This document shows positions 5,723 through 53,218 of a stretch of 64,000 nucleotides of DNA, piece by piece. Source of the stretch: Chlamydiales bacterium (GTDB lineage: Bacteria; Chlamydiota; Chlamydiia; Chlamydiales; JAAKFR01); the NCBI GenBank assembly GCA_022601635.1, contig JAJACG010000022.1, positions 5,790 to 69,789 on the forward strand, in the 5' to 3' direction. The notes below the pieces were generated by a model. The model had not been told where the DNA came from and did not search any database. It saw only the letters and a list, made by a program, of their open reading frames with translations. The position numbers and the translations under genes are program-made. Within the stretch, counting starts at the first letter, position 1. Each line of letters begins with the position of its first letter.

Positions 5723-6547
5723 CTGCTTGCTGATTTCAAAGCCATCTATACGAGGAATATGTGTAAATCAGGACTCACTTCAGAGAACACGTCTTCGATA
5801 AAACTCCTGTAGGAGGAGGGACAAACTCTTTTGGGGATTTTGTTGTAAGTTGATCGATCTCGAGCAGTGGCAGTATATATGCATTGGGCAAGCAAGAAAA
5901 AGGTCTAATCGTGCAAAATCAGCCAAAAGGCTTCTCAAGTCTGACTTATTCAACAACGCCCTAGACAAAAAAAATCTATGTTCTACTATACACACTTTCG
6001 AAACTCTTACCTGAAAAAATCAATGTCTCGAGCCACACGATTATATTGTGCTATACCAAAGCAACTAAAAACCTTTGCTCATAACTATTGCAGAAGCTGC
6101 GCTCTTGTAACCGAAGATCAATTTCAAAAAGCAGTCCGAGTGAACAACTATGTTCAATATCTCTCAGATAGATATGAAACTTCAGTGGGTGCGCGGAGCC
6201 ACATGCTGTCTGGGGGTGAGAAACAGAGAATCTCTCCTACACAAGCACTTAGTAGTATCCCCGATCTCCTAATACTTGATGAAGTGATCAGCCATCCCAA
6301 TCCTCCTTCTGAGTGGTATATAAGAGATTTCGCTGAAAAGCTTCAGGAAGAGACTACGACCTTAATCGTTGCTCATAAACCCACCTCTATTCTATGTACC
6401 GATACAATCGATATTCTTGCAAAAGGTAAAATCACAGAAGTAAACCCTCATAAGAAGTTCATAGAGCTCAACAACTCTTACACCCGTATGTGGAACTACC
6501 AGAAATACCAACTACCAAAAGAAATCAGAACTAATTATGCTACATAA
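5723..6547 (+). pseudogene. Decayed copy of the ATPase (NBD) half of the upstream ABC exporter
   Basis: A single reading frame from 5723 aligns colinearly with the exporter from LLAEKSTPIYEG onward: LLADFKAIYTR...LTSENTSSIKLL*...VDRSRAVAVYMHWASKKKV*...LSGGEKQRISPTQAL...LLILDEVISH...LIVAHKP...SYTRMWNYQKY. There are four in-frame stops (5810, 5846, 5906, 5942). Walker A is destroyed and no TM half is present. Track ORF 5978..6547 is only the open tail of this frame. Confidence 0.8.
5916..5962. repeat. Short relic motif shared with 34593..34622
   Basis: AAATCAGCCA (5916-5925) plus GACTTATTCAACAACGCCCT (5943-5962) matches 34593-34622 (AAATCAGCCAGCCTTATTCAACAACGCCCT). That is 29/30 identity once a 17-nt insertion in this copy is removed. 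This copy lies inside the ABC pseudogene. Confidence 0.7.
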
Positions 6548-7781
6548 TCTCTACAAAGCCCTTCAATTTCTACTCACACCCCTTGCCTACTGCTTGCGCT
6601 TATGCAGGATTGAGACACTCTCAATGCCCTACCAAGCGATTGGTCACCTTATCTTTGAACCATTTGTTCTACTGATGGAACAAAAAGTTCATAGCCAAAA
6701 GAAACACACTATCTTAATTCCACCACCACCCTACATCTTTGCTACAGAAAATACGAATCGATCTGGTATTGCAAATAGCTATGTACTCTCGCTATGGAGA
6801 CAGCACTTTGCTGTCATTGACAACTACTATTTAGTGTGCATTTTAGCTCCATTACTTTATCACCCCAAGCTAGTCAAATTTCTTGATCACTATTTGACAC
6901 CACATCACCCTGCGGGCCTACCTCGATATGGATCTGCATCTGAGCTCTACAATAAATACATGAAAGGTATCTCTAAAAAGTCAGTCCTAGAAATTCCCCC
7001 TAAAGATCTTGAAAAAGGTTACTCGATTTTGAAAAAACTAGGGGTTGAGAAGGGCGAAAAATTTATCTGTTTCTTTCAACGTGACAACGCCTATTACACT
7101 TTGGAACCGCAAAAAATTCGCACAGGCAGTATTGCAACACTTGAAATGGGGCTCGCTGAAGCGATCAAACGAGGCTATTGGTGCATCAGACTCTCTGCAA
7201 AGTGTGATCCCTTGCCTGAGAACTTAAAAAATTACTCAAAGATTATTGACTATCCTCATACCAAGTTTAGAAGCGATTTCATGGATGTCTTCTTGATCTC
7301 GGAATGCTCCCTCTTTATTGGTGCCAATAGCGGCCTCAACTTTCTCCCTGTTATGTTTGATACTCCAAGCGCTCTAGTCAATGTGAGTCCATTTGGCTGG
7401 AGAAATTTTCGCCCAATTGATCGCTCCATCTTTAAGCTTCTAAAAAATGTAAAAACTGGGCAGCTTTGTGATTTCCGCTACTGCATGCATAGCGCTCAAG
7501 TACAGAGAAATAATGATATGTATGCAACGAGCATGGGCATTGAATGGATTAATAACTCTCCTGAAGAGATTCGCGATTTTATGGTAGAAATGCTAGACAA
7601 TGTAGAAGAGAGTGCGGAGGATTTGCAACTACAAAATGCTTTTAAAGCTCTCGACCATAAGCTGCATCTGCAATACAACTATCAAGGACGTATCGGCATC
7701 TCATACTTGCGAAAGTACAAAGATCTACTCTTAGAGGGGAATCCGATCCCCTTGCATCGGGAAGATGAATTGAATGTCTAA
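6537..7781 (+). CDS. Putative glycosyltransferase, paralog family copy A (GT-B/GT9-like C-terminal half; possibly TIGR04372-type)
   Basis: 414 aa, colinear with the ORFs at 34678 and 50855. Shared blocks are AIGHL..EP, GIAN..L..LWRQ.F.VID, ICFFQRDN.YY, GYWCIR, and IDYPHT.F.SDFMD.FL...CS.F.G.NSG.N..P..F..P..LVNV.PFG. The last block resembles the heptosyltransferase-type donor-binding region. The start overlaps the pseudogene stop by 11 nt. The C-terminus reads 16 codons beyond the family end (..KYKDLL) into the antisense strand of the PDE gene. Confidence 0.55.
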   Translation: MLHNLYKALQFLLTPLAYCLRLCRIETLSMPYQAIGHLIFEPFVLLMEQKVHSQKKHTILIPPPPYIFATENTNRSGIANSYVLSLWRQHFAVIDNYYLVCILAPLLYHPKLVKFLDHYLTPHHPAGLPRYGSASELYNKYMKGISKKSVLEIPPKDLEKGYSILKKLGVEKGEKFICFFQRDNAYYTLEPQKIRTGSIATLEMGLAEAIKRGYWCIRLSAKCDPLPENLKNYSKIIDYPHTKFRSDFMDVFLISECSLFIGANSGLNFLPVMFDTPSALVNVSPFGWRNFRPIDRSIFKLLKNVKTGQLCDFRYCMHSAQVQRNNDMYATSMGIEWINNSPEEIRDFMVEMLDNVEESAEDLQLQNAFKALDHKLHLQYNYQGRIGISYLRKYKDLLLEGNPIPLHREDELNV

Positions 7782-33220: not shown

Positions 33221-34594
33221 TTGTTTAAGTTGATTAAATGCTTCATAAAGCGATTTCAATGCCCCTGTTTTCGTTTATTTAATCTCTTTTATGAGCCCTA
33301 TCTATTCCGAAAACTAACAAAGCAGATAGATGAACTTCCTGAAGGTACACAGCTCTTTTTCATGGCACGCTCCGATCGCGGGACTATGCTGACTCTGCTC
33401 AACTATGTTCAGAAGTGGGAAGAAAATCGTGGTCCGACTGCTTTGGTTGTCTTATCCAGCCTATCCGATTTTCTCAATGGCTTGGTGGACTATATCATTC
33501 CAAACACAGTTGTGATGGTACCCTCAAGAAAGTTACTAAGGATCTTTGGAAATCGGAATGTGCACTTTCTTTGCTATGCAAATGTCTATGCAAAACTGCT
33601 CTTTGAATTCCCAAATGCAAAATACCTCTTCCATCTCCGAAGAAAAAACTATCCATCTTTCCCCCCAAGCAACTATTCTAAGTACTCAGATCCAAACATG
33701 GGTATAACTAGCTTGCCCCATCAGTTTAGAAATAAATATATATCCTATAGTCAGTTCACTGACTGTCACCTAGAAAGCAATAAAGACTATGCAACCGTCT
33801 GGTTTCAAGGAGATTGGAGAAAGTCCTGCCCCATTGCACCAAAACAGACAGATGACCTTTGCAAAGCTCTAGGGATTAAGAAACCATATGTAGTGATTAA
33901 TCTCCCCTATGCTGGAAATTACCCCTATCCAACATTAAGGCGCATTTCACAGCCAAAACGATACGATCCTGTTATTGATCATTTAATCCGCCAAGGTTTC
34001 ACAATTGTCCAGCATGGGAGAAGAGAACAGGCAAAGTTTGCTTCAAGACCTGGACTTATTGACTACTATGAGTCTGATTTGGCCTCTCCTAAAAATGATC
34101 TACTCCTATTTTCATCCTCCACTTTTGCTATTATGACTAGCTCCGGGCCTGAATATTTTGCTCTGTTTGCCAATCGTCCAGTATTAACTCTGAACAAGCT
34201 TGAAGGAATAACAAATCTGCCAAGTCACAAATCACGTTTTTTTCCTAAAGCTGTTTTTGATCGACAAAAAGAAGCATTCTTGTCATGGGAAGAATTTCTG
34301 GTATCGCCTGCATATTTCGACCTGGATCAGTGGAATAACCAGGAAAGATTTGAGCATCATGAACTTAGCTCCGAACAACTATTGGAAGCAACCAAAGAAT
34401 TTCTTACTCTTATCAAAGAAGATGAGTGGGAGTGTCTAACTTCCAGGCAAAGGAGCTTCCGAGAAAAGCTAAATCCATGTAATCTCGAGATCAATTTCTC
34501 AAGAGCACAACCTTGTGATACCTACCTTAAGTATTTTTCTTCAAAAACAATGAAACTTACTGATCAGCCTCGATATGTGGGTCACTCGCAGTAA
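33221..34594 (+). CDS. Hypothetical protein; a distant member of the putative glycosyltransferase paralog family
   Basis: 457 aa with a TTG start. Its architecture matches copies A, B and C: KPYVVINLPYAG...RYDPVIDHLIRQGFTIVQHGRRE...LIDYYESDLASPKNDLLLFSSSTFAIMTSSGPEYFALFANRPVLTLN. Sequence identity is low, so the assignment is tentative. Confidence 0.4.
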   Translation: MFKLIKCFIKRFQCPCFRLFNLFYEPYLFRKLTKQIDELPEGTQLFFMARSDRGTMLTLLNYVQKWEENRGPTALVVLSSLSDFLNGLVDYIIPNTVVMVPSRKLLRIFGNRNVHFLCYANVYAKLLFEFPNAKYLFHLRRKNYPSFPPSNYSKYSDPNMGITSLPHQFRNKYISYSQFTDCHLESNKDYATVWFQGDWRKSCPIAPKQTDDLCKALGIKKPYVVINLPYAGNYPYPTLRRISQPKRYDPVIDHLIRQGFTIVQHGRREQAKFASRPGLIDYYESDLASPKNDLLLFSSSTFAIMTSSGPEYFALFANRPVLTLNKLEGITNLPSHKSRFFPKAVFDRQKEAFLSWEEFLVSPAYFDLDQWNNQERFEHHELSSEQLLEATKEFLTLIKEDEWECLTSRQRSFREKLNPCNLEINFSRAQPCDTYLKYFSSKTMKLTDQPRYVGHSQ

Positions 34595-34622: not shown

Positions 34623-34677
34623 CCAAACACAGTAATTGACTAAAAAGTGCACGAAATAATATGTGTTGAACGCATCA

Positions 34678-35874
34678 ATGAAAGGTAAGCTACTCTCTCT
34701 ATTTTACTGGGCAACTGCCCCAATTGCGCTTATACTCTATCTTCTTAGAATACGAGTATTACATACTAATTACTTTGCGATTGGCCATCTTGCCATCGAT
34801 CCATATACTATCGCTTTACAAATGCAGCAACAAGGCAAGAACTGGAAGGTCATTCTTGTACCTTTTGTTACATTCTTTTCTAAAAAAAGAAACTCTAATT
34901 CAGTTGGGATTGCGAACCTCTACCTAGCTAAACTATGGCGTCAACAATTTACTGTTATCGATTCTTATTGGCTAGCCTGTCTTTGTTCACCAATACTTTA
35001 TCACCCAATCCTTCAAATCAACACGCACAAATTTTTTCGTCCCAAAATGTCCGCACTGTATCAAGAACACGCCTCTTTAGCTCAGTTGTACAAGGAAAAC
35101 AAATCGGCTATTGACCCTATTCTTAAAATCCCTCCAAAAGACTTGAATCTTGGTTGGAAAATATTAAGAAGTATGGGATTGACCACAAGTGATAAATTTC
35201 TCTGTTTCTTCCAAAGAGATAATCTTTACTACCCCGAAGCGCTCGATACTCTGCGTGATAGTAATATCGAATCACTGACTCTTGCTCTCGAAGAAGCTAT
35301 TTCTCAAGGGTATTGGTGTATTCGTATCGGAAAGAAGTGTCTCCCTCTTCCAAAGAGCCTACAGGAGAAACAATACATTATCGACTACCCTCATACAGAA
35401 TTTACTTCAGATTTTATGGATATTTTTCTTCTTGCTAACTGCTCGTTTTTCTTAGGTAGTAATAGTGGGATTAACCACGTACCATTTCTCTTTCAAAAAC
35501 CAAGTGTATTAGTCAATGTTGTCCCATTTGGTTTGAAAACTTTGGATTCAAGAGACCGAGTTATCTACAAACTTCAACGTGATCGTAGAAATCAAAAACT
35601 TCTATCCTTTCATCAATCTATTTCTAGCCTCTTATCAAATTCTCAGAACAATCGCGAATATGAAATGTTCAATATAGAGCTACAGGACAATTCACAAGAT
35701 GAGATTCGTGATGCCATGATAGAACTCTTGAATGAAATTGAATGTAGGCCTCAGACCCTAAATAAGCAACTCCAATTGCAGTTTGAAAAGCTCGATCACT
35801 GTATGCTCTTTTCGTATGAAAAAGCCTCCCGAATCGGGAATGCATTCTTAGAAAAATATGAAGCTCTTTTATAG
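34678..35874 (+). CDS. Putative glycosyltransferase, paralog family copy B
   Basis: By eye it is about 60 percent identical to copy A across the blocks compared (for example LCFFQRDNLYY, GYWCIRIG, IIDYPHTEFTSDFMDIFLLANCSFFLGSNSGINHVPFLFQKPSVLVNVVPFG). I prefer ATG 34678 over the track's GTG 34663, because it gives the same N-terminal length as copy A. Confidence 0.55.
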   Translation: MKGKLLSLFYWATAPIALILYLLRIRVLHTNYFAIGHLAIDPYTIALQMQQQGKNWKVILVPFVTFFSKKRNSNSVGIANLYLAKLWRQQFTVIDSYWLACLCSPILYHPILQINTHKFFRPKMSALYQEHASLAQLYKENKSAIDPILKIPPKDLNLGWKILRSMGLTTSDKFLCFFQRDNLYYPEALDTLRDSNIESLTLALEEAISQGYWCIRIGKKCLPLPKSLQEKQYIIDYPHTEFTSDFMDIFLLANCSFFLGSNSGINHVPFLFQKPSVLVNVVPFGLKTLDSRDRVIYKLQRDRRNQKLLSFHQSISSLLSNSQNNREYEMFNIELQDNSQDEIRDAMIELLNEIECRPQTLNKQLQLQFEKLDHCMLFSYEKASRIGNAFLEKYEALL

Positions 35875-41386: not shown

Positions 41387-42312
41387 AGATATTGATTACA
41401 GGCGCTACAGGCTTTATGGGGCGCCATCTTTGCTCTGCACTAAAAGCGCATGAAATCACAGAGGTAAATTCTAAAAACTGTGACTTAACTCTTGCTGATA
41501 GCTTGGAGCAGTTTGAGCAGAAGTTTGATCGCATTTACCATCTAGCCGCCTGGACACAAGCGGGTGACTTCTGCCTATATCATCCTGGTGAACAATGGAT
41601 CGTCAACCAGAAGATCAATACAAATGTTCTTTCTTGGTGGCAAAAGCATCAGCCGCAGGCGAAACTGATTGCAATGGGCACAAGTTGCAGCTATGCCTGC
41701 GATGCAATTTTGACAGAGGAGACCTATCTAGATGGAACACCTATAGATAGCCTATATACCTACGCGATGACAAAAAGGATGTTACTTGTAGGATTAAAGG
41801 CGCTGCATAAGCAGTTTGGACTTCAATACCTCTATATTGTACCCTCTACGCTCTATGGTCCCAACTACCATACAGATGCGAGACAGCTACACTTTATCTT
41901 CGATTTGATTCGCAAAATCATTGCAGGGAAATATGAAGGCGAGTGCGTTGTTTTATGGGGCGATGGCCATCAAAAAAGAGAACTGATCTATATCGATGAT
42001 TTTATTGATGCCTTGGTTCATCTCTCAAATAGTGTTTCTAATCAGATTGTGAATGTTGGCTCTGGTCAAGAGCACACCATCCGTGAGTTCGCAAAAGCTA
42101 TTTGCAATTATGTGGACTATCCCTTTGAAAAGATTGAGTTTGATCTAACGAAGCATGTTGGGGCAAAGTCCAAAGTGCTGAAGGTGGATTTACTTAAGCA
42201 ATTGCATCCAGAGGTTCAGCAGACTCCTCTGAGGTTTGGCTTGGAACAGGCGGTAGAGTGGTTTTTAGATATGCGCACACAATCGCAATATGCGTCCAAC
42301 AATAATTCCTGA
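41383..42312 (+). CDS. NAD(P)-dependent epimerase/reductase (GDP-L-fucose synthase-like SDR)
   Basis: 309 aa with MKILITGATGFMGRHL, YAMTKRM (YxxxK), and a size and C-terminus (GLEQAVEWFL) like Fcl/WcaG-type enzymes. It overlaps the C-methyltransferase by 4 nt. Confidence 0.6.
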   Translation: MKILITGATGFMGRHLCSALKAHEITEVNSKNCDLTLADSLEQFEQKFDRIYHLAAWTQAGDFCLYHPGEQWIVNQKINTNVLSWWQKHQPQAKLIAMGTSCSYACDAILTEETYLDGTPIDSLYTYAMTKRMLLVGLKALHKQFGLQYLYIVPSTLYGPNYHTDARQLHFIFDLIRKIIAGKYEGECVVLWGDGHQKRELIYIDDFIDALVHLSNSVSNQIVNVGSGQEHTIREFAKAICNYVDYPFEKIEFDLTKHVGAKSKVLKVDLLKQLHPEVQQTPLRFGLEQAVEWFLDMRTQSQYASNNNS

Positions 42313-47606: not shown

Positions 47607-48898
47607 GAACTATTGAGTTCAGCAGCAATTTCTCCCGCAACAGCATGTAGATATACACCCATCTGAGCTGCCAAAAGAGGCTCATGCATGTGTGCAAGCA
47701 ATGCAGCAATCACCCCGGTTAATACATCACCAGATCCAGCTGTTGCCATACCGGGATCGCCCCTTGCCATGATAAAACGCTTCTGATTAGGGACAAAAAT
47801 TTGAGTGGGAGCGCCTTTCAATACCACATAGACATCATGCTCATCAGCAAACTGCTGCACACTTTGCCCCTCGGATAGAAGTCGCTTCATCTCTCCCGTA
47901 TGCGGCGTCAAAATGCTTTTTGGCTGAATAGAGAGTTGATGCTTGGCAATCAGTGTGAGAGCTTCCGCATCGATCACCATAGGCACAGTTGCAGCTAACA
48001 GCTCTTTCAGTAGCTCAACTCTTTCAAGGCCAAAGCCTGGACCAATGAATAGCGCAGAAGCTTTTTTCAGCGCTTCAAAAATTGGGGCCGAATCTGTAAA
48101 GCCGCAACGGATAATTTCAGGTGGAGCAGAGACCAGTTCAGCTTCCATTCCCTTTGGATGAAAGAGGCGTACAATGCCAGCACCTGCGCGCAAGGCTGCA
48201 AAGGCGCTTAAAATAGCAGCACCTGGCATCCCAGGTGAGCCAGCTACAGCGACAACGTAGCCCGCCTCATATTTGTGCTGTGTCCGTTTCAGTGGAGGCA
48301 AAGCAACTTTTTCAATTAAGGTAGCCTCCTCCTCTGCTTGATCAATGAATTCTTGCGGTAGACCAAAGTCATGGACACTTAAAATGCCAGCCTCTTCCCA
48401 CCTTTCAAAAATAACAGTTTTGGGAAGACCGAGGCAGAGTGTTTCCGTAGCAACTATTCCAGGTGATGCGATATCAATGGCAAAAATAGGAAGCTCAGAT
48501 CTCGTAGCCTTATCGATCACACTTTTATAGGGACCGTTGGGGGTTCCATGGAAGCCTGTTCCAAAGAGGGCGTCAATGATGATTCCCTCATCAAAAGTAG
48601 CCTCTTCTAGTGGATGAGTTTTACCCCATCTCTTCTTTTTACAAAGAGCGCTTTTTGGCTCTGCAACATGAAGAGTGACATCATAGCCAGCCTTGTCCAA
48701 GATTTTTGCAGCAACATAGCCATCACCGCCATTGTTACCACAGCCGATGAGAAAAGTTAGTTTTGGCTTTCCAGGAAGTTGCTCGATTGCAGAGGCGACA
48801 GCAGCACCCGCAGCATCCATAAAACTCTCTTCTTTGCAGCCGCTTGCATAAGCAAGCTGCTCAATACGCGCCATCTCTTTGGGGGATACTACCTTCAT
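47543..48898 (-). CDS. nnr: Bifunctional NAD(P)H-hydrate repair enzyme (YjeF_N epimerase plus ADP-dependent dehydratase)
   Basis: I re-called the start as MKVVSPKEMARIE (ATG 48898). The N-domain motif is GCGNNGGDGYVAA and the C-domain motif is TAGSGDVLTGVIAALLA. Confidence 0.85.
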   Translation of the reverse strand: MKVVSPKEMARIEQLAYASGCKEESFMDAAGAAVASAIEQLPGKPKLTFLIGCGNNGGDGYVAAKILDKAGYDVTLHVAEPKSALCKKKRWGKTHPLEEATFDEGIIIDALFGTGFHGTPNGPYKSVIDKATRSELPIFAIDIASPGIVATETLCLGLPKTVIFERWEEAGILSVHDFGLPQEFIDQAEEEATLIEKVALPPLKRTQHKYEAGYVVAVAGSPGMPGAAILSAFAALRAGAGIVRLFHPKGMEAELVSAPPEIIRCGFTDSAPIFEALKKASALFIGPGFGLERVELLKELLAATVPMVIDAEALTLIAKHQLSIQPKSILTPHTGEMKRLLSEGQSVQQFADEHDVYVVLKGAPTQIFVPNQKRFIMARGDPGMATAGSGDVLTGVIAALLAHMHEPLLAAQMGVYLHAVAGEIAAELNSSYCVVASDITEALPDAYLLCH

Positions 48899-48900
48899 CA

Positions 48901-49758
48901 CTATGTCCTTCCCAAGGCATACGCCGTGCGTGAGACAAAATGCCAAAAGGGATCCATACTACGGCGTAAAGAGCTAGCGTAGCCACTTTCAAATTTCTCA
49001 ACTTCTGAGAATGGAATTCCAAAGAGATCTGTTAGCTCGCTCTGATAGCCTGGCTGTACCTGCTGCAAACTTCTGCCATCGTAGACGACATAATCCAACT
49101 TCTGAAGCTGGCGAACTGTTGAGACCTCTTCTCCATCCATAGAGCGGTATTCCATAATCACAAGTGGTTTACACTGTTTCAAACACTTTGTAGCACCTTC
49201 AATAACCGCGTGTTCATGCCCTTCAACATCGATCTTAAAAAGAGAACATTCTTCTAAACCCAGATCGTCAACACATTTGGTTTTAACTTCTACCTGAGTC
49301 TGATTGGTAAAGAAATCGCTATGTGCATTGGCCATTGACTGCTCAACAGTTGCGCACTCTGCAAAATCTTCATCGGGGTTTACCAACAATGAAACTATTT
49401 GATCTGACTGATTGGAAAGCGCAGCATGAATTAACTCTATTTGTGGCAAAGAATCGAGTATCTTTGACGTTTCCTTGTAGATGACTGGATGCGCTTCAAA
49501 GGCAAAAATTCTGCCCTTGTTGCCCACAAGTGAGGCGTAGTATTTAGAGTATTTACCGAGGTGTGCTCCAGCATCAATAATGGTCTGCCCCGGTTTGACA
49601 AAAGTTGCAGCAAGCAGTTTCTTATGCAGATCTAGAGTCTCATTTCGTAGCGGTGAAAACATCTTTTGTTGCACCACTTTACGAAGATAAGCATCTTGCA
49701 ACTTAGTTGACCAAAGCTTTGAAAATAGCCACGCAACTGGAAAAATTGCTCCGTTCAA
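48901..49758 (-). CDS. FkbM-family methyltransferase
   Basis: The segments IIDAGAHLGKYSKYYASLVGNKGRIFAFEAHP and LFKIDVEGHEHAVIEGA match the FkbM layout. Confidence 0.7.
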   Translation of the reverse strand: MNGAIFPVAWLFSKLWSTKLQDAYLRKVVQQKMFSPLRNETLDLHKKLLAATFVKPGQTIIDAGAHLGKYSKYYASLVGNKGRIFAFEAHPVIYKETSKILDSLPQIELIHAALSNQSDQIVSLLVNPDEDFAECATVEQSMANAHSDFFTNQTQVEVKTKCVDDLGLEECSLFKIDVEGHEHAVIEGATKCLKQCKPLVIMEYRSMDGEEVSTVRQLQKLDYVVYDGRSLQQVQPGYQSELTDLFGIPFSEVEKFESGYASSLRRSMDPFWHFVSRTAYALGRT

Positions 49759-50726
49759 TTAATGGTCCCTCCCTCAAATGGCTCTTGGTAGATCCTAGGA
49801 ACTATATGCACAGTCTGGACTGAATCTAAATTTTTTACAACAGGGGTCGCCTCAATTTCATAAGCATAGGCGCCCTCTTTGAGGGGTAACACTTGCGACA
49901 CTTCCGCTACTCTAAGTCCAGCAGGAAAAAAGCCATCCAAACCTGTTGTGACCAAAAGATCGTGTGCTTGCAAAATGGGAGGCTCTGATTGTAGGGGTCT
50001 CGCTAGTCCCTCATCATCAGCAAAGTCATAGTTGAAGCCGATTCCACGAAGAACATGACTACGACTACGCCAAAGAGGGGATCCACCGCCTTCTAAAATG
50101 CCCTTAGCCAGAAACCAACTCTCTCTCTCTAGGTCTAAATTTCTCTGCAAACTTTCAAGCTCAGCAATTAATTCTAGCTGCTTCAATTCTTCTAGGGGAA
50201 GGTCTACTCTTCCTTGTAGGTGACGCAAGACGGCCACTACATGTTCACACAGCTGCGCATTTTGCAAAGCGCCCCGTACAGCACGTACAGAGGGTTTCAA
50301 ACCTACATCTGTGATAAGACGTACGCGTGACTGCTTCTTACCTACATGATCCACTAGACCAATCAATGCATCCCCAACAAGAACCGGACTATTAACTGCG
50401 ATTTTGTCTTCCCCTGCATCAACCCAAAATACACTGCCCCAGCTATGTGGATTGCGATAGATTACATGTGCAATCACTACATCTGGGAAAGAGGAATGGG
50501 CACGACTTTCAACTTTGAGCTGAGCTAGCTCCATCTTCAAGAGGTAGTTCTGTGCCTCTAGTTTTTTAGTCTCGGCAGCCTGTTTGGTAGCTGCTGAACG
50601 CAAAAAGGGAAAGGCTAGAGCCACAACTTTGCACCTTAGCTTTTCCACCATCAGAGTGGGTAGGCTGACTAGAGCAAAGAGTGTAGCTGCTAAAACTAGA
50701 TATTTTTTGTAGGACTTCCTACGCAT
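49755..50726 (-). CDS. mreC: Rod-shape/division protein MreC
   Basis: 323 aa with an N-terminal TM and a coiled segment (LEAQNYLLKMELAQLK). The beta-rich core contains VLVGDALIGLVDHVGKKQSRVRLITDVGLKPSVRAVR. Confidence 0.75.
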   Translation of the reverse strand: MRRKSYKKYLVLAATLFALVSLPTLMVEKLRCKVVALAFPFLRSAATKQAAETKKLEAQNYLLKMELAQLKVESRAHSSFPDVVIAHVIYRNPHSWGSVFWVDAGEDKIAVNSPVLVGDALIGLVDHVGKKQSRVRLITDVGLKPSVRAVRGALQNAQLCEHVVAVLRHLQGRVDLPLEELKQLELIAELESLQRNLDLERESWFLAKGILEGGGSPLWRSRSHVLRGIGFNYDFADDEGLARPLQSEPPILQAHDLLVTTGLDGFFPAGLRVAEVSQVLPLKEGAYAYEIEATPVVKNLDSVQTVHIVPRIYQEPFEGGTIN

Positions 50727-50730
50727 GAAT

Positions 50731-50793
50731 ACTCAAAATCGCTTTTGTGACATATCCTACATTTTTGGAATTTAAACCAGCTACATATATCCG
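50731..50793. repeat. 63-bp direct repeat, copy 1 (non-coding relic of the aminotransferase 3' end)
   Basis: ACTCAAAATCGCTTTTGTGACATATCCTACATTTTTGGAATTTAAACCAGCTACATATATCCG matches 52106-52168 at 59/63 positions. Read on the minus strand it continues ...KAILSIHA*, whose stop (50719-50721) overlaps the mreC ATG (ATGCGTAG). Confidence 0.9.
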
Positions 50794-50801
50794 TACGTGT
50801 G

Positions 50802-50829
50802 TTGACAAAAAAAACCTTATCTTTATAAG
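50802..50829 (+). promoter_or_regulatory. Sigma-70/sigma-66-like promoter candidate for paralog copy C
   Basis: TTGACA (50802-50807), a 16-nt spacer, then TATAAG (50824-50829), about 25 nt upstream of the TTG start at 50855. A similar TTGACTAAAAA lies upstream of copy B (34636). This is a sequence match only. Confidence 0.35.
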
Positions 50830-50854
50830 AGCGTTTTAAAATAAGGGCACTCGA

Positions 50855-52105
50855 TTGAAAATACGTTCATTTTTACAGGATAGTGAGTCTCTAAAAACCT
50901 TGGATCGACGCCTCAAACTGTTTTCTGACTGTATTTTCTCTCCCATTGCTCTGCTGTTACGGCTACTTCGGATCCGAGTATTGGTTATAGATAATGGAAG
51001 CATTGGTCATCTCTCTTTTGAACCTTATATGTATTTAAAACATCAAGCTCTAGAAAACAATAGAGTGCTTACCATCCTAATGCCGTACGTTTCTATACTT
51101 ACACTATTTAAACATATCCATTCCGGAAATCCAATCATTGCAAACAAGCCTTTGTTTGATCTATGGAAGAGAGACTTCTTTACTATCAGAAACCCTATGC
51201 TTTGCCTCCTTCTTACCCCTATATTGCACCACCCCTTTCTTCAAAAAGATGGGAAGATCTACCAAACACTTCCTCTCCCAGGCTATTTCGTTGACATTCA
51301 TTATGGGATTCTTACTAAAAAGTTCCGAGAGAGATTTGGTGAAACGGCACTGACATTTAAGCTCAGTTCGAATCAGCAACAACAGGGCAAGAAACTCCTA
51401 TGCAATCTGGGACTCCCTCCAAATGCAAAATATATCTGCTTCTATACTCGAGAGCCTGGTTATAAAAACCTAAGTTACAATCCATTGCGAAATGGAAATA
51501 TTCTTGATTTCAAAAAATCTTTGGACTACTTGACTGAACAAGGCTATTTCTGTATCCGTACCGGAGATCCAAATACTCGCCCCCTTCCAAAGAGTTGGGA
51601 AAAAAATCCAATGATTCTCGATTACCCTCATCTAGGCCATAGCTCCCCATTCAACGATCTATTCTTACTATCAAGCTGCTCATTCTTTATCGGTTGTAAT
51701 TCCGGAATTATATTAACCTGTGACCTTTTCAATGTCCCCAAGATTTTAATCAATTCTATCCCATTTGGATATCTCCCGCTTCTTCCTGGAGATCGTGCAA
51801 TTTTCAAGAAAATGAAGCGCGCCAGTACAGGGGAATACCTCCCGTTTAGTGAGGCTATGAGAAGCTGTACTGTTTTAGAAATCCATAACCCAGTAATCTA
51901 CAAAGCATTTGACATAGAAGTAATTGATAACACTGAAGATGAGATTTTTGATGCAGTAAAAGAGATGCTAGATCCGCCAAATTGCAAGGAAAGCAAAGTT
52001 CGACAAGAGAAGTTCCGTAAGCTATACCACCCACTTCACCCATTTGAAAATGTTCCATCAACGGTTTGCGACTCATTTCTCAAGAAGTATGAACACTTAC
52101 TTTAA
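50855..52105 (+). CDS. Putative glycosyltransferase, paralog family copy C
   Basis: 416 aa with a TTG start. It is colinear with copies A and B but more diverged: SIGHLSFEPY, YICFYTREPGY, GYFCIRTG, ILDYPHLGHSSPFNDLFLLSSCSFFIGCNSGIILTCDLFNVPKILINSIPFG, and the C-terminal FLKKYEHLL. Confidence 0.55.
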   Translation: MKIRSFLQDSESLKTLDRRLKLFSDCIFSPIALLLRLLRIRVLVIDNGSIGHLSFEPYMYLKHQALENNRVLTILMPYVSILTLFKHIHSGNPIIANKPLFDLWKRDFFTIRNPMLCLLLTPILHHPFLQKDGKIYQTLPLPGYFVDIHYGILTKKFRERFGETALTFKLSSNQQQQGKKLLCNLGLPPNAKYICFYTREPGYKNLSYNPLRNGNILDFKKSLDYLTEQGYFCIRTGDPNTRPLPKSWEKNPMILDYPHLGHSSPFNDLFLLSSCSFFIGCNSGIILTCDLFNVPKILINSIPFGYLPLLPGDRAIFKKMKRASTGEYLPFSEAMRSCTVLEIHNPVIYKAFDIEVIDNTEDEIFDAVKEMLDPPNCKESKVRQEKFRKLYHPLHPFENVPSTVCDSFLKKYEHLL

Positions 52106-53218
52106 ACTCAAAATCGCTTTTGAGACATACCCAACATTTTTGGAATTTAAACCAGCTACATTTATCCGCCCATCTTCAGTCATATAAATTCCATACTCAC
52201 TGCGAAGACGCAAAACCTGCTCTCGACTCAGCCTCGTATAAGAAAACATCCCGCGCTGATCAAGTAAGAATTCAAAACCGGGGAGCTGAGCCGCAAGCTG
52301 AGCCCTCATCCACACAATACGCTGCCTCATAGCTGCCAGCTCTATTAGCCACTGATCTTTCAGATCTGGATGAGATAAGATATGTGCTACTATCGATGCA
52401 CCATGCGAAGGTGGATTAGAATAGATTCCGCGTACAAGCCTGCGCAGCTGTGACTCCAGCCGCTTGACACCACTATGTCTCACAAATAAGGCCCCTGTTC
52501 GTTCACGATAGAGACCAAAAATCTTAGAATGAGAAATAGCCAACATAAAGGGATGGGAACTTTCAGCAAAGTAACGCACAGCATAGGCGTCCTCTTCAAC
52601 ACCCAAACCAAATCCCTGATAAGCCATATCAAATAGAGGGAGCAGATTTTTCCGCTTTACTATTTCTGCTATTGCCTCCCACTGCTCTTTTGTATAGTCA
52701 CAACCCGTTGGATTATGGCAGCAGGGCTGCAGTAAGACAACGCTATTTGGGCTCATCGATTCAAAGGGCATAGGCCCAGCAAAGTGATCGAAGCTCTCTA
52801 TCTCCATCCCACCAGAAGAAAAAATATGGTGGTGGTTACCCCAAGTTGGATTGCCAATATAGAGCTTTGTATGGCCAGCACGCACAAGAAGCTCCGCTGC
52901 TAATCGCAGCGCTCCTGTACCACCAACTGTCTGAGCCCCAATAAGGTCATCTAGGTTCGAAGCAAAAACTAGCTGTGCTGTCGACTTGATGTAGTCAGCA
53001 AGTCCCAATATTGGCAGATAGTCCTTGCTATGCTCTTTTTCAAATAGTTCCCTCTCTGCTTGCTTGACACTGGGTAAGATATAGGGCTTTAACTCCTCTG
53101 TCTTGTAGGTGCCAATCGAAAGGTTCACCTTATGCTCGCTGCGTTCTATCTCAAAAGCGCGTTGCACCCCAAAGAGAGAATCGGGCGGAAGTGTCTCTAA
53201 AGATTCAAAAAATTCCAT
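52097..53218 (-). CDS. Aspartate/aromatic amino acid aminotransferase (class I)
   Basis: The PLP-lysine context is ISHSKIFGLYRERTGAL. Other class I blocks are NPTGCDY, NLSIGTYK, and the C-terminal GRINVAGLNSKNV. The probable start is MEFFESLE (53218). Its last 9 nt lie within the 3' end of paralog copy C. Confidence 0.85.
   Translation of the reverse strand: MEFFESLETLPPDSLFGVQRAFEIERSEHKVNLSIGTYKTEELKPYILPSVKQAERELFEKEHSKDYLPILGLADYIKSTAQLVFASNLDDLIGAQTVGGTGALRLAAELLVRAGHTKLYIGNPTWGNHHHIFSSGGMEIESFDHFAGPMPFESMSPNSVVLLQPCCHNPTGCDYTKEQWEAIAEIVKRKNLLPLFDMAYQGFGLGVEEDAYAVRYFAESSHPFMLAISHSKIFGLYRERTGALFVRHSGVKRLESQLRRLVRGIYSNPPSHGASIVAHILSHPDLKDQWLIELAAMRQRIVWMRAQLAAQLPGFEFLLDQRGMFSYTRLSREQVLRLRSEYGIYMTEDGRINVAGLNSKNVGYVSKAILSLK
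52106..52168. repeat. 63-bp direct repeat, copy 2 (functional 3' end of the aminotransferase CDS)
   Basis: It matches 50731-50793 at 59/63 positions and starts immediately after the stop codon of paralog copy C. Confidence 0.9.

Follow-up and report, generated by a model that had tools for sequence, protein, structure and literature searches.

The 64-kb window analysed here, a stretch of 64,000 nucleotides from contig JAJACG010000022.1 of a Chlamydiales bacterium (assembly GCA_022601635.1), contains the genes for an aspartate/aromatic (AspC/TyrB-type) aminotransferase and for mreC on the minus strand, parted by 1,312 nt of DNA that carry one glycosyltransferase gene and are bounded by two direct repeats of 63 bp. 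The aminotransferase (52097–53218, minus strand) has 373 aa counted from its ATG, matches Pfam Aminotran_1_2 (PF00155) and NCBIfam NF006719 (4e-127), and is 100% identical to P0001. The mreC gene (49755–50726, minus strand) encodes 323 aa and matches Pfam MreC and NCBIfam PRK14872. In the reading direction of these two genes, the order is the body of the aminotransferase, repeat copy 2 (R2, 63 nt), the insert (1,312 nt, from 52105 to 50794), repeat copy 1 (R1, 63 nt), the short sequence ATTCATGCGTAG, and mreC. R2 (52106–52168, minus strand) reads RINVAGLNSKNVGYVSKAILS and is the working 3' coding segment of the aminotransferase. R1 (50731–50793, minus strand) reads RIYVAGLNSKNVGYVTKAILS and is a non-coding relic, corresponding to the 21 full codons that immediately precede the aminotransferase tail. 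R1 is followed at 50719–50726 (minus strand) by ATGCGTAG, a fossil stop/start overlap in which the mreC ATG (50726–50724) meets the TAG of the relic (50721–50719).

The insert consists of a single open reading frame (ORF), opposite in strand to the aminotransferase and mreC, and 61 nt of AT-rich upstream DNA. The ORF, termed copy C (50855–52105, plus strand), is an intact glycosyltransferase gene of 416 aa with a TTG start and a match to NCBIfam TIGR04372 (9e-46), which agrees with the initial annotation of the insert as one paralogous gene with a short upstream region. That upstream region, the 5' non-coding end of the insert (50794–50854, plus strand, GC 0.33), had also been credited with a promoter-like element. 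Both hexamers, TTGACA at 50802–50807 and TATAAG at 50824–50829, and the 16-nt spacer are present as described, but a strict consensus scan rejects the combination as a promoter, the last base of the second hexamer being G; from these motifs a promoter function may be inferred. The ends of the glycosyltransferase and aminotransferase genes converge and overlap by 9 nt (52097–52105), and the new tail of the aminotransferase, L-K-stop, is the antisense of the L-L-stop of the glycosyltransferase.

The two repeat copies were compared by repeat search and pairwise alignment and are identical at 59 of 63 positions with a spacing of 1375, as first reported; blastn against the window gave this match an E value of 8e-22. 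The edges of the repeat are sharp, with only 16/40 and 12/40 identities in the adjoining 40 nt, and fall on codon boundaries, 63 nt being exactly 21 codons. The longest exact run common to R1 and R2 is 28 nt. The only other direct repeats of at least 28 nt in the 64 kb were a Rossmann-motif match and two chance-level pairs. Only two copies of the 63-bp sequence were recovered when the window was compared with itself, so that it is not dispersed there, contrary to a possibility raised along with the initial annotation. The whole structure is 100% identical in three assemblies, namely two scaffolds in ENA from different samples and a Logan contig, whose run may share reads with either sample. 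Because these three assemblies agree and the longest shared exact run is only 28 nt, an assembly chimera is a very unlikely source of the two-copy structure. An inverted repeat of 20 nt (17/20 identical) was also noted, with one arm in the 3' region of the glycosyltransferase gene (51922–51941) and the other directly beside R2 (52171–52190); it is at background level for the region and was set aside as probably due to chance.

On the minus strand R1 translates as ...VRIYVAGLNSKNVGYVTKAILSIHA and a stop (ending ...AILSIHA), and R2 as ...DGRINVAGLNSKNVGYVSKAILSLK and a stop, which is the C-terminus of the aminotransferase. The minus-strand translations thus bear out both the roles proposed for the two copies, R2 as the functional 3' end and R1 as a non-coding relic by mreC, and the exchange of the aminotransferase tail, in which ...SIHA was replaced by ...SLK. 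Beyond the ...AILS segment the tail is variable among relatives, where SLHA, SL, SLDA, SLRRHDE, KVHAQKEL and SVMHA were observed, so the change from SIHA to SLK is probably harmless to the enzyme. Scanning for promoters and terminators gave no call for mreC, and the predicted RNA structure of the mreC leader with the relic was the same as that of shuffled sequence (z = –0.06).

For comparison, aminotransferase homologues and their contigs were collected from other Chlamydiota, the nearest relatives being 64–67% identical, and species-representative genomes were scanned with an MreC alignment, which gave 74 chlamydial loci. Together with loci fetched earlier, the scan provided 69 loci (given L numbers below) outside the source genome with both genes on one strand. 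The gap between aminotransferase and mreC was at most 30 nt in 49 of the 69, and in 36 of those 49 the genes overlap. A further 15 loci had an estimated gap of 31–200 nt, most of these estimates being unreliable as the MreC alignments start inside the protein. Gaps above 200 nt were found at five loci (L004, L005, L010, L032 and L045, the 250 nt of L045 being a partial-alignment estimate). The 8-nt overlap ATGCGTAG is intact in L006, L011, L013, L014 and L038. In L006 (GCA_038916925.1), for example, the aminotransferase ends in ...AILSLHA and its stop overlaps the mreC ATG exactly as at the relic junction, which supports the earlier claim that the ancestral junction can be reconstructed from the relic. 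By peptide search the aminotransferase tail was found twice in the source genome alone, and once in each of the 68 other loci with a match. Since the five loci with the exact overlap all have a single tail copy, an empty site exists; the comparison with related Chlamydiota that had been suggested as a check thus shows one tail copy, not two, in relatives that lack the cassette. Both R1 and R2 align to this one single-copy target in the empty-site relatives (46–51/63). An empty allele of the same species was sought in metagenome contigs of the JGI with a flank-repeat-flank pattern, which had no match; the species itself is absent from that collection, so this negative carries no information. 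In L007 (2455–2470) a 5-nt insertion (TAAAT) relative to L006 un-overlaps the stop and start and shortens the aminotransferase tail to ...AILSL.

R1 and R2 are closer to each other (59/63) than either is to the five closest relatives (46–51/63), and at five positions they share a state that differs from all five. As the copies are each other's closest relatives and have these five derived positions in common, the duplicated DNA was the resident sequence or that of a very close donor. The four differences between the copies were polarised against 11 relatives. The derived states of R1 are at positions 7 (Asn to Tyr) and 46 (Ser to Thr), both non-synonymous, and those of R2 at positions 36 and 39, both synonymous (GTA to GTT and GGA to GGG). 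This split is as would be predicted for a non-coding relic and a copy under purifying selection, although with four sites it is suggestive only. The insertion is old enough for about 6% divergence to have accumulated between the copies.

Copy C aligns end to end with its relatives, and its C-terminus, ...KKYEHLL, compares with ...RKYEHLLI and ...EKYEALL and matches that of P0122 and GT_B. The insert thus ends essentially at the stop codon of its cargo, which is the native C-terminus of the family. Three further TIGR04372 paralogues are present in the window (6537–7781, 34663–35874 and 33221–34594), at 25–35% identity to copy C, with values of 34–35% among the window paralogues; all four paralogues, including 50855–52105, lie within one 64-kb window and are 25–44% identical. 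A large glycan cluster surrounds them, with genes for UDP-glucose dehydrogenase, epimerases, Wzy_C, CmcI, and C- and FkbM-type methyltransferases. Among 5.8 billion proteins, a word-indexed search matched copy C only to itself, and the best non-self match in an exhaustive phmmer search of 1.84 billion representatives was P0122, at 39%. The P0122/P0271 clade is chlamydial and is found in syntenic glycan clusters. P0122 was rejected as an ortholog of copy C, since its identity to each of the paralogues A, B and C is about 37% and no specific orthology is apparent. No donor or source locus can be named for copy C. Its composition is likewise no evidence for foreign origin: the insert has a GC content of 0.39 against about 0.46 in the flanks, but its GC at third codon positions (0.37) matches that of mreC and yjeF, and all four paralogues are similarly low, so that low GC is a trait of the family. 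In a related genome (L084, 5043–7053) a TIGR04372 glycosyltransferase gene (P0271) lies between the epimerase and Wzy_C genes; at 42194–42312 of the window these two genes overlap and the glycosyltransferase slot is empty. The positions of glycosyltransferases in the syntenic cluster are fluid.

As the initial annotation had stated, no integrase or transposase gene was found in the 1,312-bp insert or within about 10 kb of it. The neighbouring genes are tRNA-Ala and those for a dicarboxylate symporter, a DinG-like helicase, sigma-70, a CoiA homologue, YjeF, an FkbM methyltransferase, sugar-nucleotide enzymes, Wzy_C and CmcI. Repeat search reported no terminal inverted repeats at the ends of the insert, where only a weak GTGTT-N-A-N-A resemblance could be seen by eye. 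An insertion sequence (IS) or transposon was rejected on this basis, the sole ORF being the glycosyltransferase, with no transposase and no clear terminal inverted repeats. An integron cassette was rejected because no integrase was seen among the neighbours examined and the repeat is conserved aminotransferase coding sequence; this judgement was made with no formal attC model applied. When the locus was held against the features of an integrase-borne island, a replacement 3' end and a far relic of the original were present, and a tyrosine or serine recombinase gene next to the attachment site was lacking. The CoiA competence homologue (58147–58797, plus strand; Pfam CoiA_N and CoiA_nuc) is separated from the insertion by about 6 kb, and L004 has it too. 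Its presence hints at natural transformation in this lineage.

Single genes also occupy other sites of this operon. The FkbM methyltransferase gene at 48901–49758 (minus strand, in the region 48850–49800) is a second single-gene insertion; it separates mreC from yjeF, two genes that share an overlap of about 38 nt in relatives. Here the tail of mreC was replaced (...IVPRIYQEPFEGGTIN and a stop, against the ancestral ...IIPSMSDEGSFAERDDAH and a stop), and the ancestral tail can still be read as ...SDEGSIPQRDGAY and a stop across the yjeF start. No duplication flanks this FkbM insertion, the best local alignment being 7 nt. The aminotransferase/mreC junction itself holds an FkbM methyltransferase gene in L004 (7135–8086), L005 and L010 (~1273–2197), 25–27% identical to the FkbM gene of the window, and an MsrB (SelR) gene in L032 (4427–4912). 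At these four loci the gene has the same orientation as the operon and no long duplication is present; a search for relics in L004, L010 and L032 gave only chance-level short repeats, such as a 28-nt pair of 71% identity in L004. With different genes found there in other lineages, the aminotransferase/mreC junction has been invaded repeatedly. Elsewhere in the window, two overlapping ORFs at 62641–63509 (minus strand) match eukaryote-type C2H2 zinc-finger domains, which are unusual in a bacterial genome; one match to PF00096 is above the Pfam cut-off and the others are below it.

In support of the reading given in the initial annotation, we consider it about 90% probable that the locus records the insertion of a single-gene fragment of 1.3 kb, accompanied by a 63-bp duplication of the resident target, at a junction at which the two genes ancestrally overlapped. 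In the ancestor, the aminotransferase stop would have overlapped the mreC start as ATGCGTAG. A 1,312-bp fragment, comprising the TIGR04372 glycosyltransferase gene and the 61 bp upstream of it, would then have entered four codons before the aminotransferase stop, leaving the 63 bp of resident DNA just upstream of the entry point on both flanks of the insert. That this took place by an illegitimate route independent of any recombinase is also our preferred account, held with clearly less confidence and judged somewhat more probable than not. By this route, the fragment, perhaps acquired from outside or copied from another place in the cell, would have been joined by non-homologous recombination to two chromosomal ends whose break points were 63 bp apart. 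Such offset ends, the use of which we infer, could be filled-in staggered nicks or the ends of two sister copies of the chromosome. The product would have survived because the duplication left both genes intact: the aminotransferase would have kept its conserved GRINVAGL...AILS segment and exchanged a variable tail of 3–4 residues, with a stop codon supplied by the insert, and mreC would have kept its native 69 nt of upstream sequence. Selection may account for the retention of the product, since which time the copy on the mreC side would have drifted as non-coding DNA and that on the aminotransferase side would have remained under purifying selection. With this cargo, the neighbouring surface-glycan gene cluster gains a glycosyltransferase at its edge.

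Of the other routes to this structure, replicative template switching, as in fork stalling and template switching or microhomology-mediated break-induced replication (FoSTeS/MMBIR), gives an insert with a target duplication in the absence of a recombinase. A stalled nascent strand would have left the 3' end of the aminotransferase, copied 1.3 kb elsewhere and re-annealed 63 bp back, for which only DNA within the same cell is needed. The structure and the missing mobility genes fit this model, but its return junction lacks microhomology (...ACGTA/CGGAT against ...ATGGG/CGGAT) and no second near-identical template was found in the window or in public data; offset-end joining is favoured over template switching, which we hold to be unlikely. 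Site-specific or Campbell-type integration of a circular element is suggested by the prophage e14 and phage 21, which on entering the 3' end of icd leave an icdC pseudogene (Hill et al. 1989, as cited in PMC13626634). An element bearing the aminotransferase 3' end as its attachment site would have recombined within the 63 bp, fusing the gene to the element-borne tail and displacing the original tail to the far end, and its integrase would have been deleted later with the rest of the element or would have acted in trans. The topology is the same as that of icd, e14 and icdC, with a working gene whose tail is replaced, an element and a relic of the original 3' end; the insert supplies a new stop codon, and a 63-bp identity block is within the range of the repeats made by integrases at tRNA genes. 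This route is nevertheless distinctly unlikely, given the lack of an integrase gene already described, and neither such an element nor a second tail copy is present at the 69 other chlamydial aminotransferase-mreC loci. In addition, the five lineage-specific positions common to both copies mean that an element-borne copy must derive from the same lineage, and the states of R2 run ancestral, derived, derived, ancestral, which is not the sorting left by a single crossover.

A most improbable alternative is that two steps were involved. An in-frame tandem duplication of 63 bp (21 codons) would have been followed either by a second insertion, landing exactly where the repeats meet, or by homologous recombination with an allele that had diverged, as in the alternative that Lim et al. 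2012 put forward for rRNA genes. The exact 21-codon length with edges on codon boundaries suits a tandem duplication, and the model has already been proposed for similar repeat-insert-repeat structures (Lim et al. 2012). It calls for two independent events, with the second falling exactly at the repeat junction, and the survey of tail copies at 68 loci found the tandem-duplication intermediate in no relative. A chance match, a dispersed repeat or an assembly chimera can practically be disregarded. The source is a metagenome-assembled genome, and nothing else speaks for an artefact; the blastn E value, the uniqueness of the pair in 64 kb, the agreement of three assemblies and the brevity of the longest shared exact run all speak against it, as does a relic that reproduces a junction conserved in other genomes.

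Several observations weigh against an insertion with target duplication by joining at offset breaks. The insert/R1 junction has no microhomology and the R2/insert junction 0–3 nt at most; after about 6% divergence, this scarcity counts neither for nor against end joining or template switching. The boundary of the insert coincides with the stop codon of the glycosyltransferase, which is surprisingly tidy for a random break; the end could have been trimmed afterwards, or the process could have been a more specific one. At these operon junctions, other insertions have no long duplication, namely the FkbM genes in L004 and L010, the MsrB gene in L032 and, in the window, the FkbM gene that parts mreC from yjeF; a duplication is thus not strictly required. 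The tidy boundary and these duplication-free insertions count against a purely random process. As no donor or source copy was found, the ends of the fragment before insertion cannot be inspected. The genomes available for comparison are all distant, with aminotransferase identity of at most 67%, and the comparison is one between species.

A more far-reaching and improbable proposal is that the 63-bp repeats make the glycosyltransferase gene a self-contained cassette that moves without a recombinase, with the overlapping junctions of the aminotransferase-mreC-yjeF operon as recurrent landing sites. RecA-mediated looping out between the repeats would yield a circle of about 1.4 kb with one repeat and the gene, which could be taken up by a cell with an empty site and re-enter by homologous recombination; the CoiA homologue is 6 kb away. 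If true, this would extend the 'virus-like life cycle' proposed by the Kobayashi group for restriction-modification units to surface-glycan genes of Chlamydiota. A related, likewise improbable possibility is that the relic has been retained as a short ORF ahead of mreC, which would maintain translational coupling to that gene.

Insertion of the kind favoured here, with duplication of a long resident target, has precedents. The class 'insertion with long target duplication' was defined for Helicobacter pylori (Nobusato et al. 2000, Gene 259:99) and later reported from several phyla, where the repeats measure ~46 to >400 bp, mobility genes are absent and the genome compared has one copy of the target (Furuta et al. 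2010, PMC2853133), and it was held to apply to 'other DNAs' too (Lim et al. 2012). The locus resembles this class in that the segment is shorter than 20 kb and has no integrase or transposase, its direct repeats exceed 30 bp, and their target is single-copy in insert-free genomes. By the criteria of Furuta et al. 2010, an empty site is found in relatives (here between species), with the aminotransferase abutting or overlapping mreC in L006, L007 and most of the 69 loci, both repeats align to a single-copy target, the repeat of 63 bp is above 30 bp, the insert is below 20 kb and free of mobility genes, and the repeat is not dispersed (within the 64-kb window); the restriction-modification genes for which that study searched are replaced here by the TIGR04372 glycosyltransferase gene. 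Described members of the class likewise have unique repeats of 90–100% identity, and some of their targets overlap with a gene's 3' end. The locus differs in its glycosyltransferase cargo without a nuclease, its host among the Chlamydiota, its target at a stop/start overlap and the reliance on a comparison between species. The cargo described for the class consists almost entirely of restriction-modification systems, and its authors link the mechanism to breaks that these enzymes make in DNA. Since the cargo here is a glycosyltransferase with no nuclease, breakage by the cargo cannot be the driver at this locus.

The resemblance to e14 in icd lies in the replacement of the tail of a working gene by inserted DNA. 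As described in PMC13626634, the direct repeats at e14 can recombine and restore a chimeric gene. The e14 prophage measures 15 kb and brings its own site-specific recombination system, whereas the present insert of 1.3 kb carries a single metabolic gene and lacks an integrase, and nothing points to a family of such elements. Transposons and IS elements also leave a direct target duplication around the inserted DNA; 63 bp contrasts with the usual length below 10 bp and also with the long variable duplications of IS1630 (19–26 bp), and a transposase is absent here. The locus is a further case of a class that has been described and is mechanistically unsolved, a transposase-free footprint of this kind being rare yet described before. 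The initial annotation was right that the mechanism is unexplained, in that it is still unsolved for the class as a whole, but the absence of a transposase is not unprecedented.

The locus does not reveal a new kind of element and does not settle the mechanism of the class. What it offers is an unusually clean molecular fossil: the relic retains every base of an overlapping stop/start junction which other chlamydial lineages still have intact, and the event and its direction can therefore be read without ambiguity. With a cargo that has no nuclease, the case for the process being driven by a nuclease of the cargo is weakened. The aminotransferase-mreC-yjeF operon, although packed, overlapping and strongly conserved, can accept surface-glycan genes without loss of function, which bears on the diversification of envelope glycans in environmental chlamydiae.

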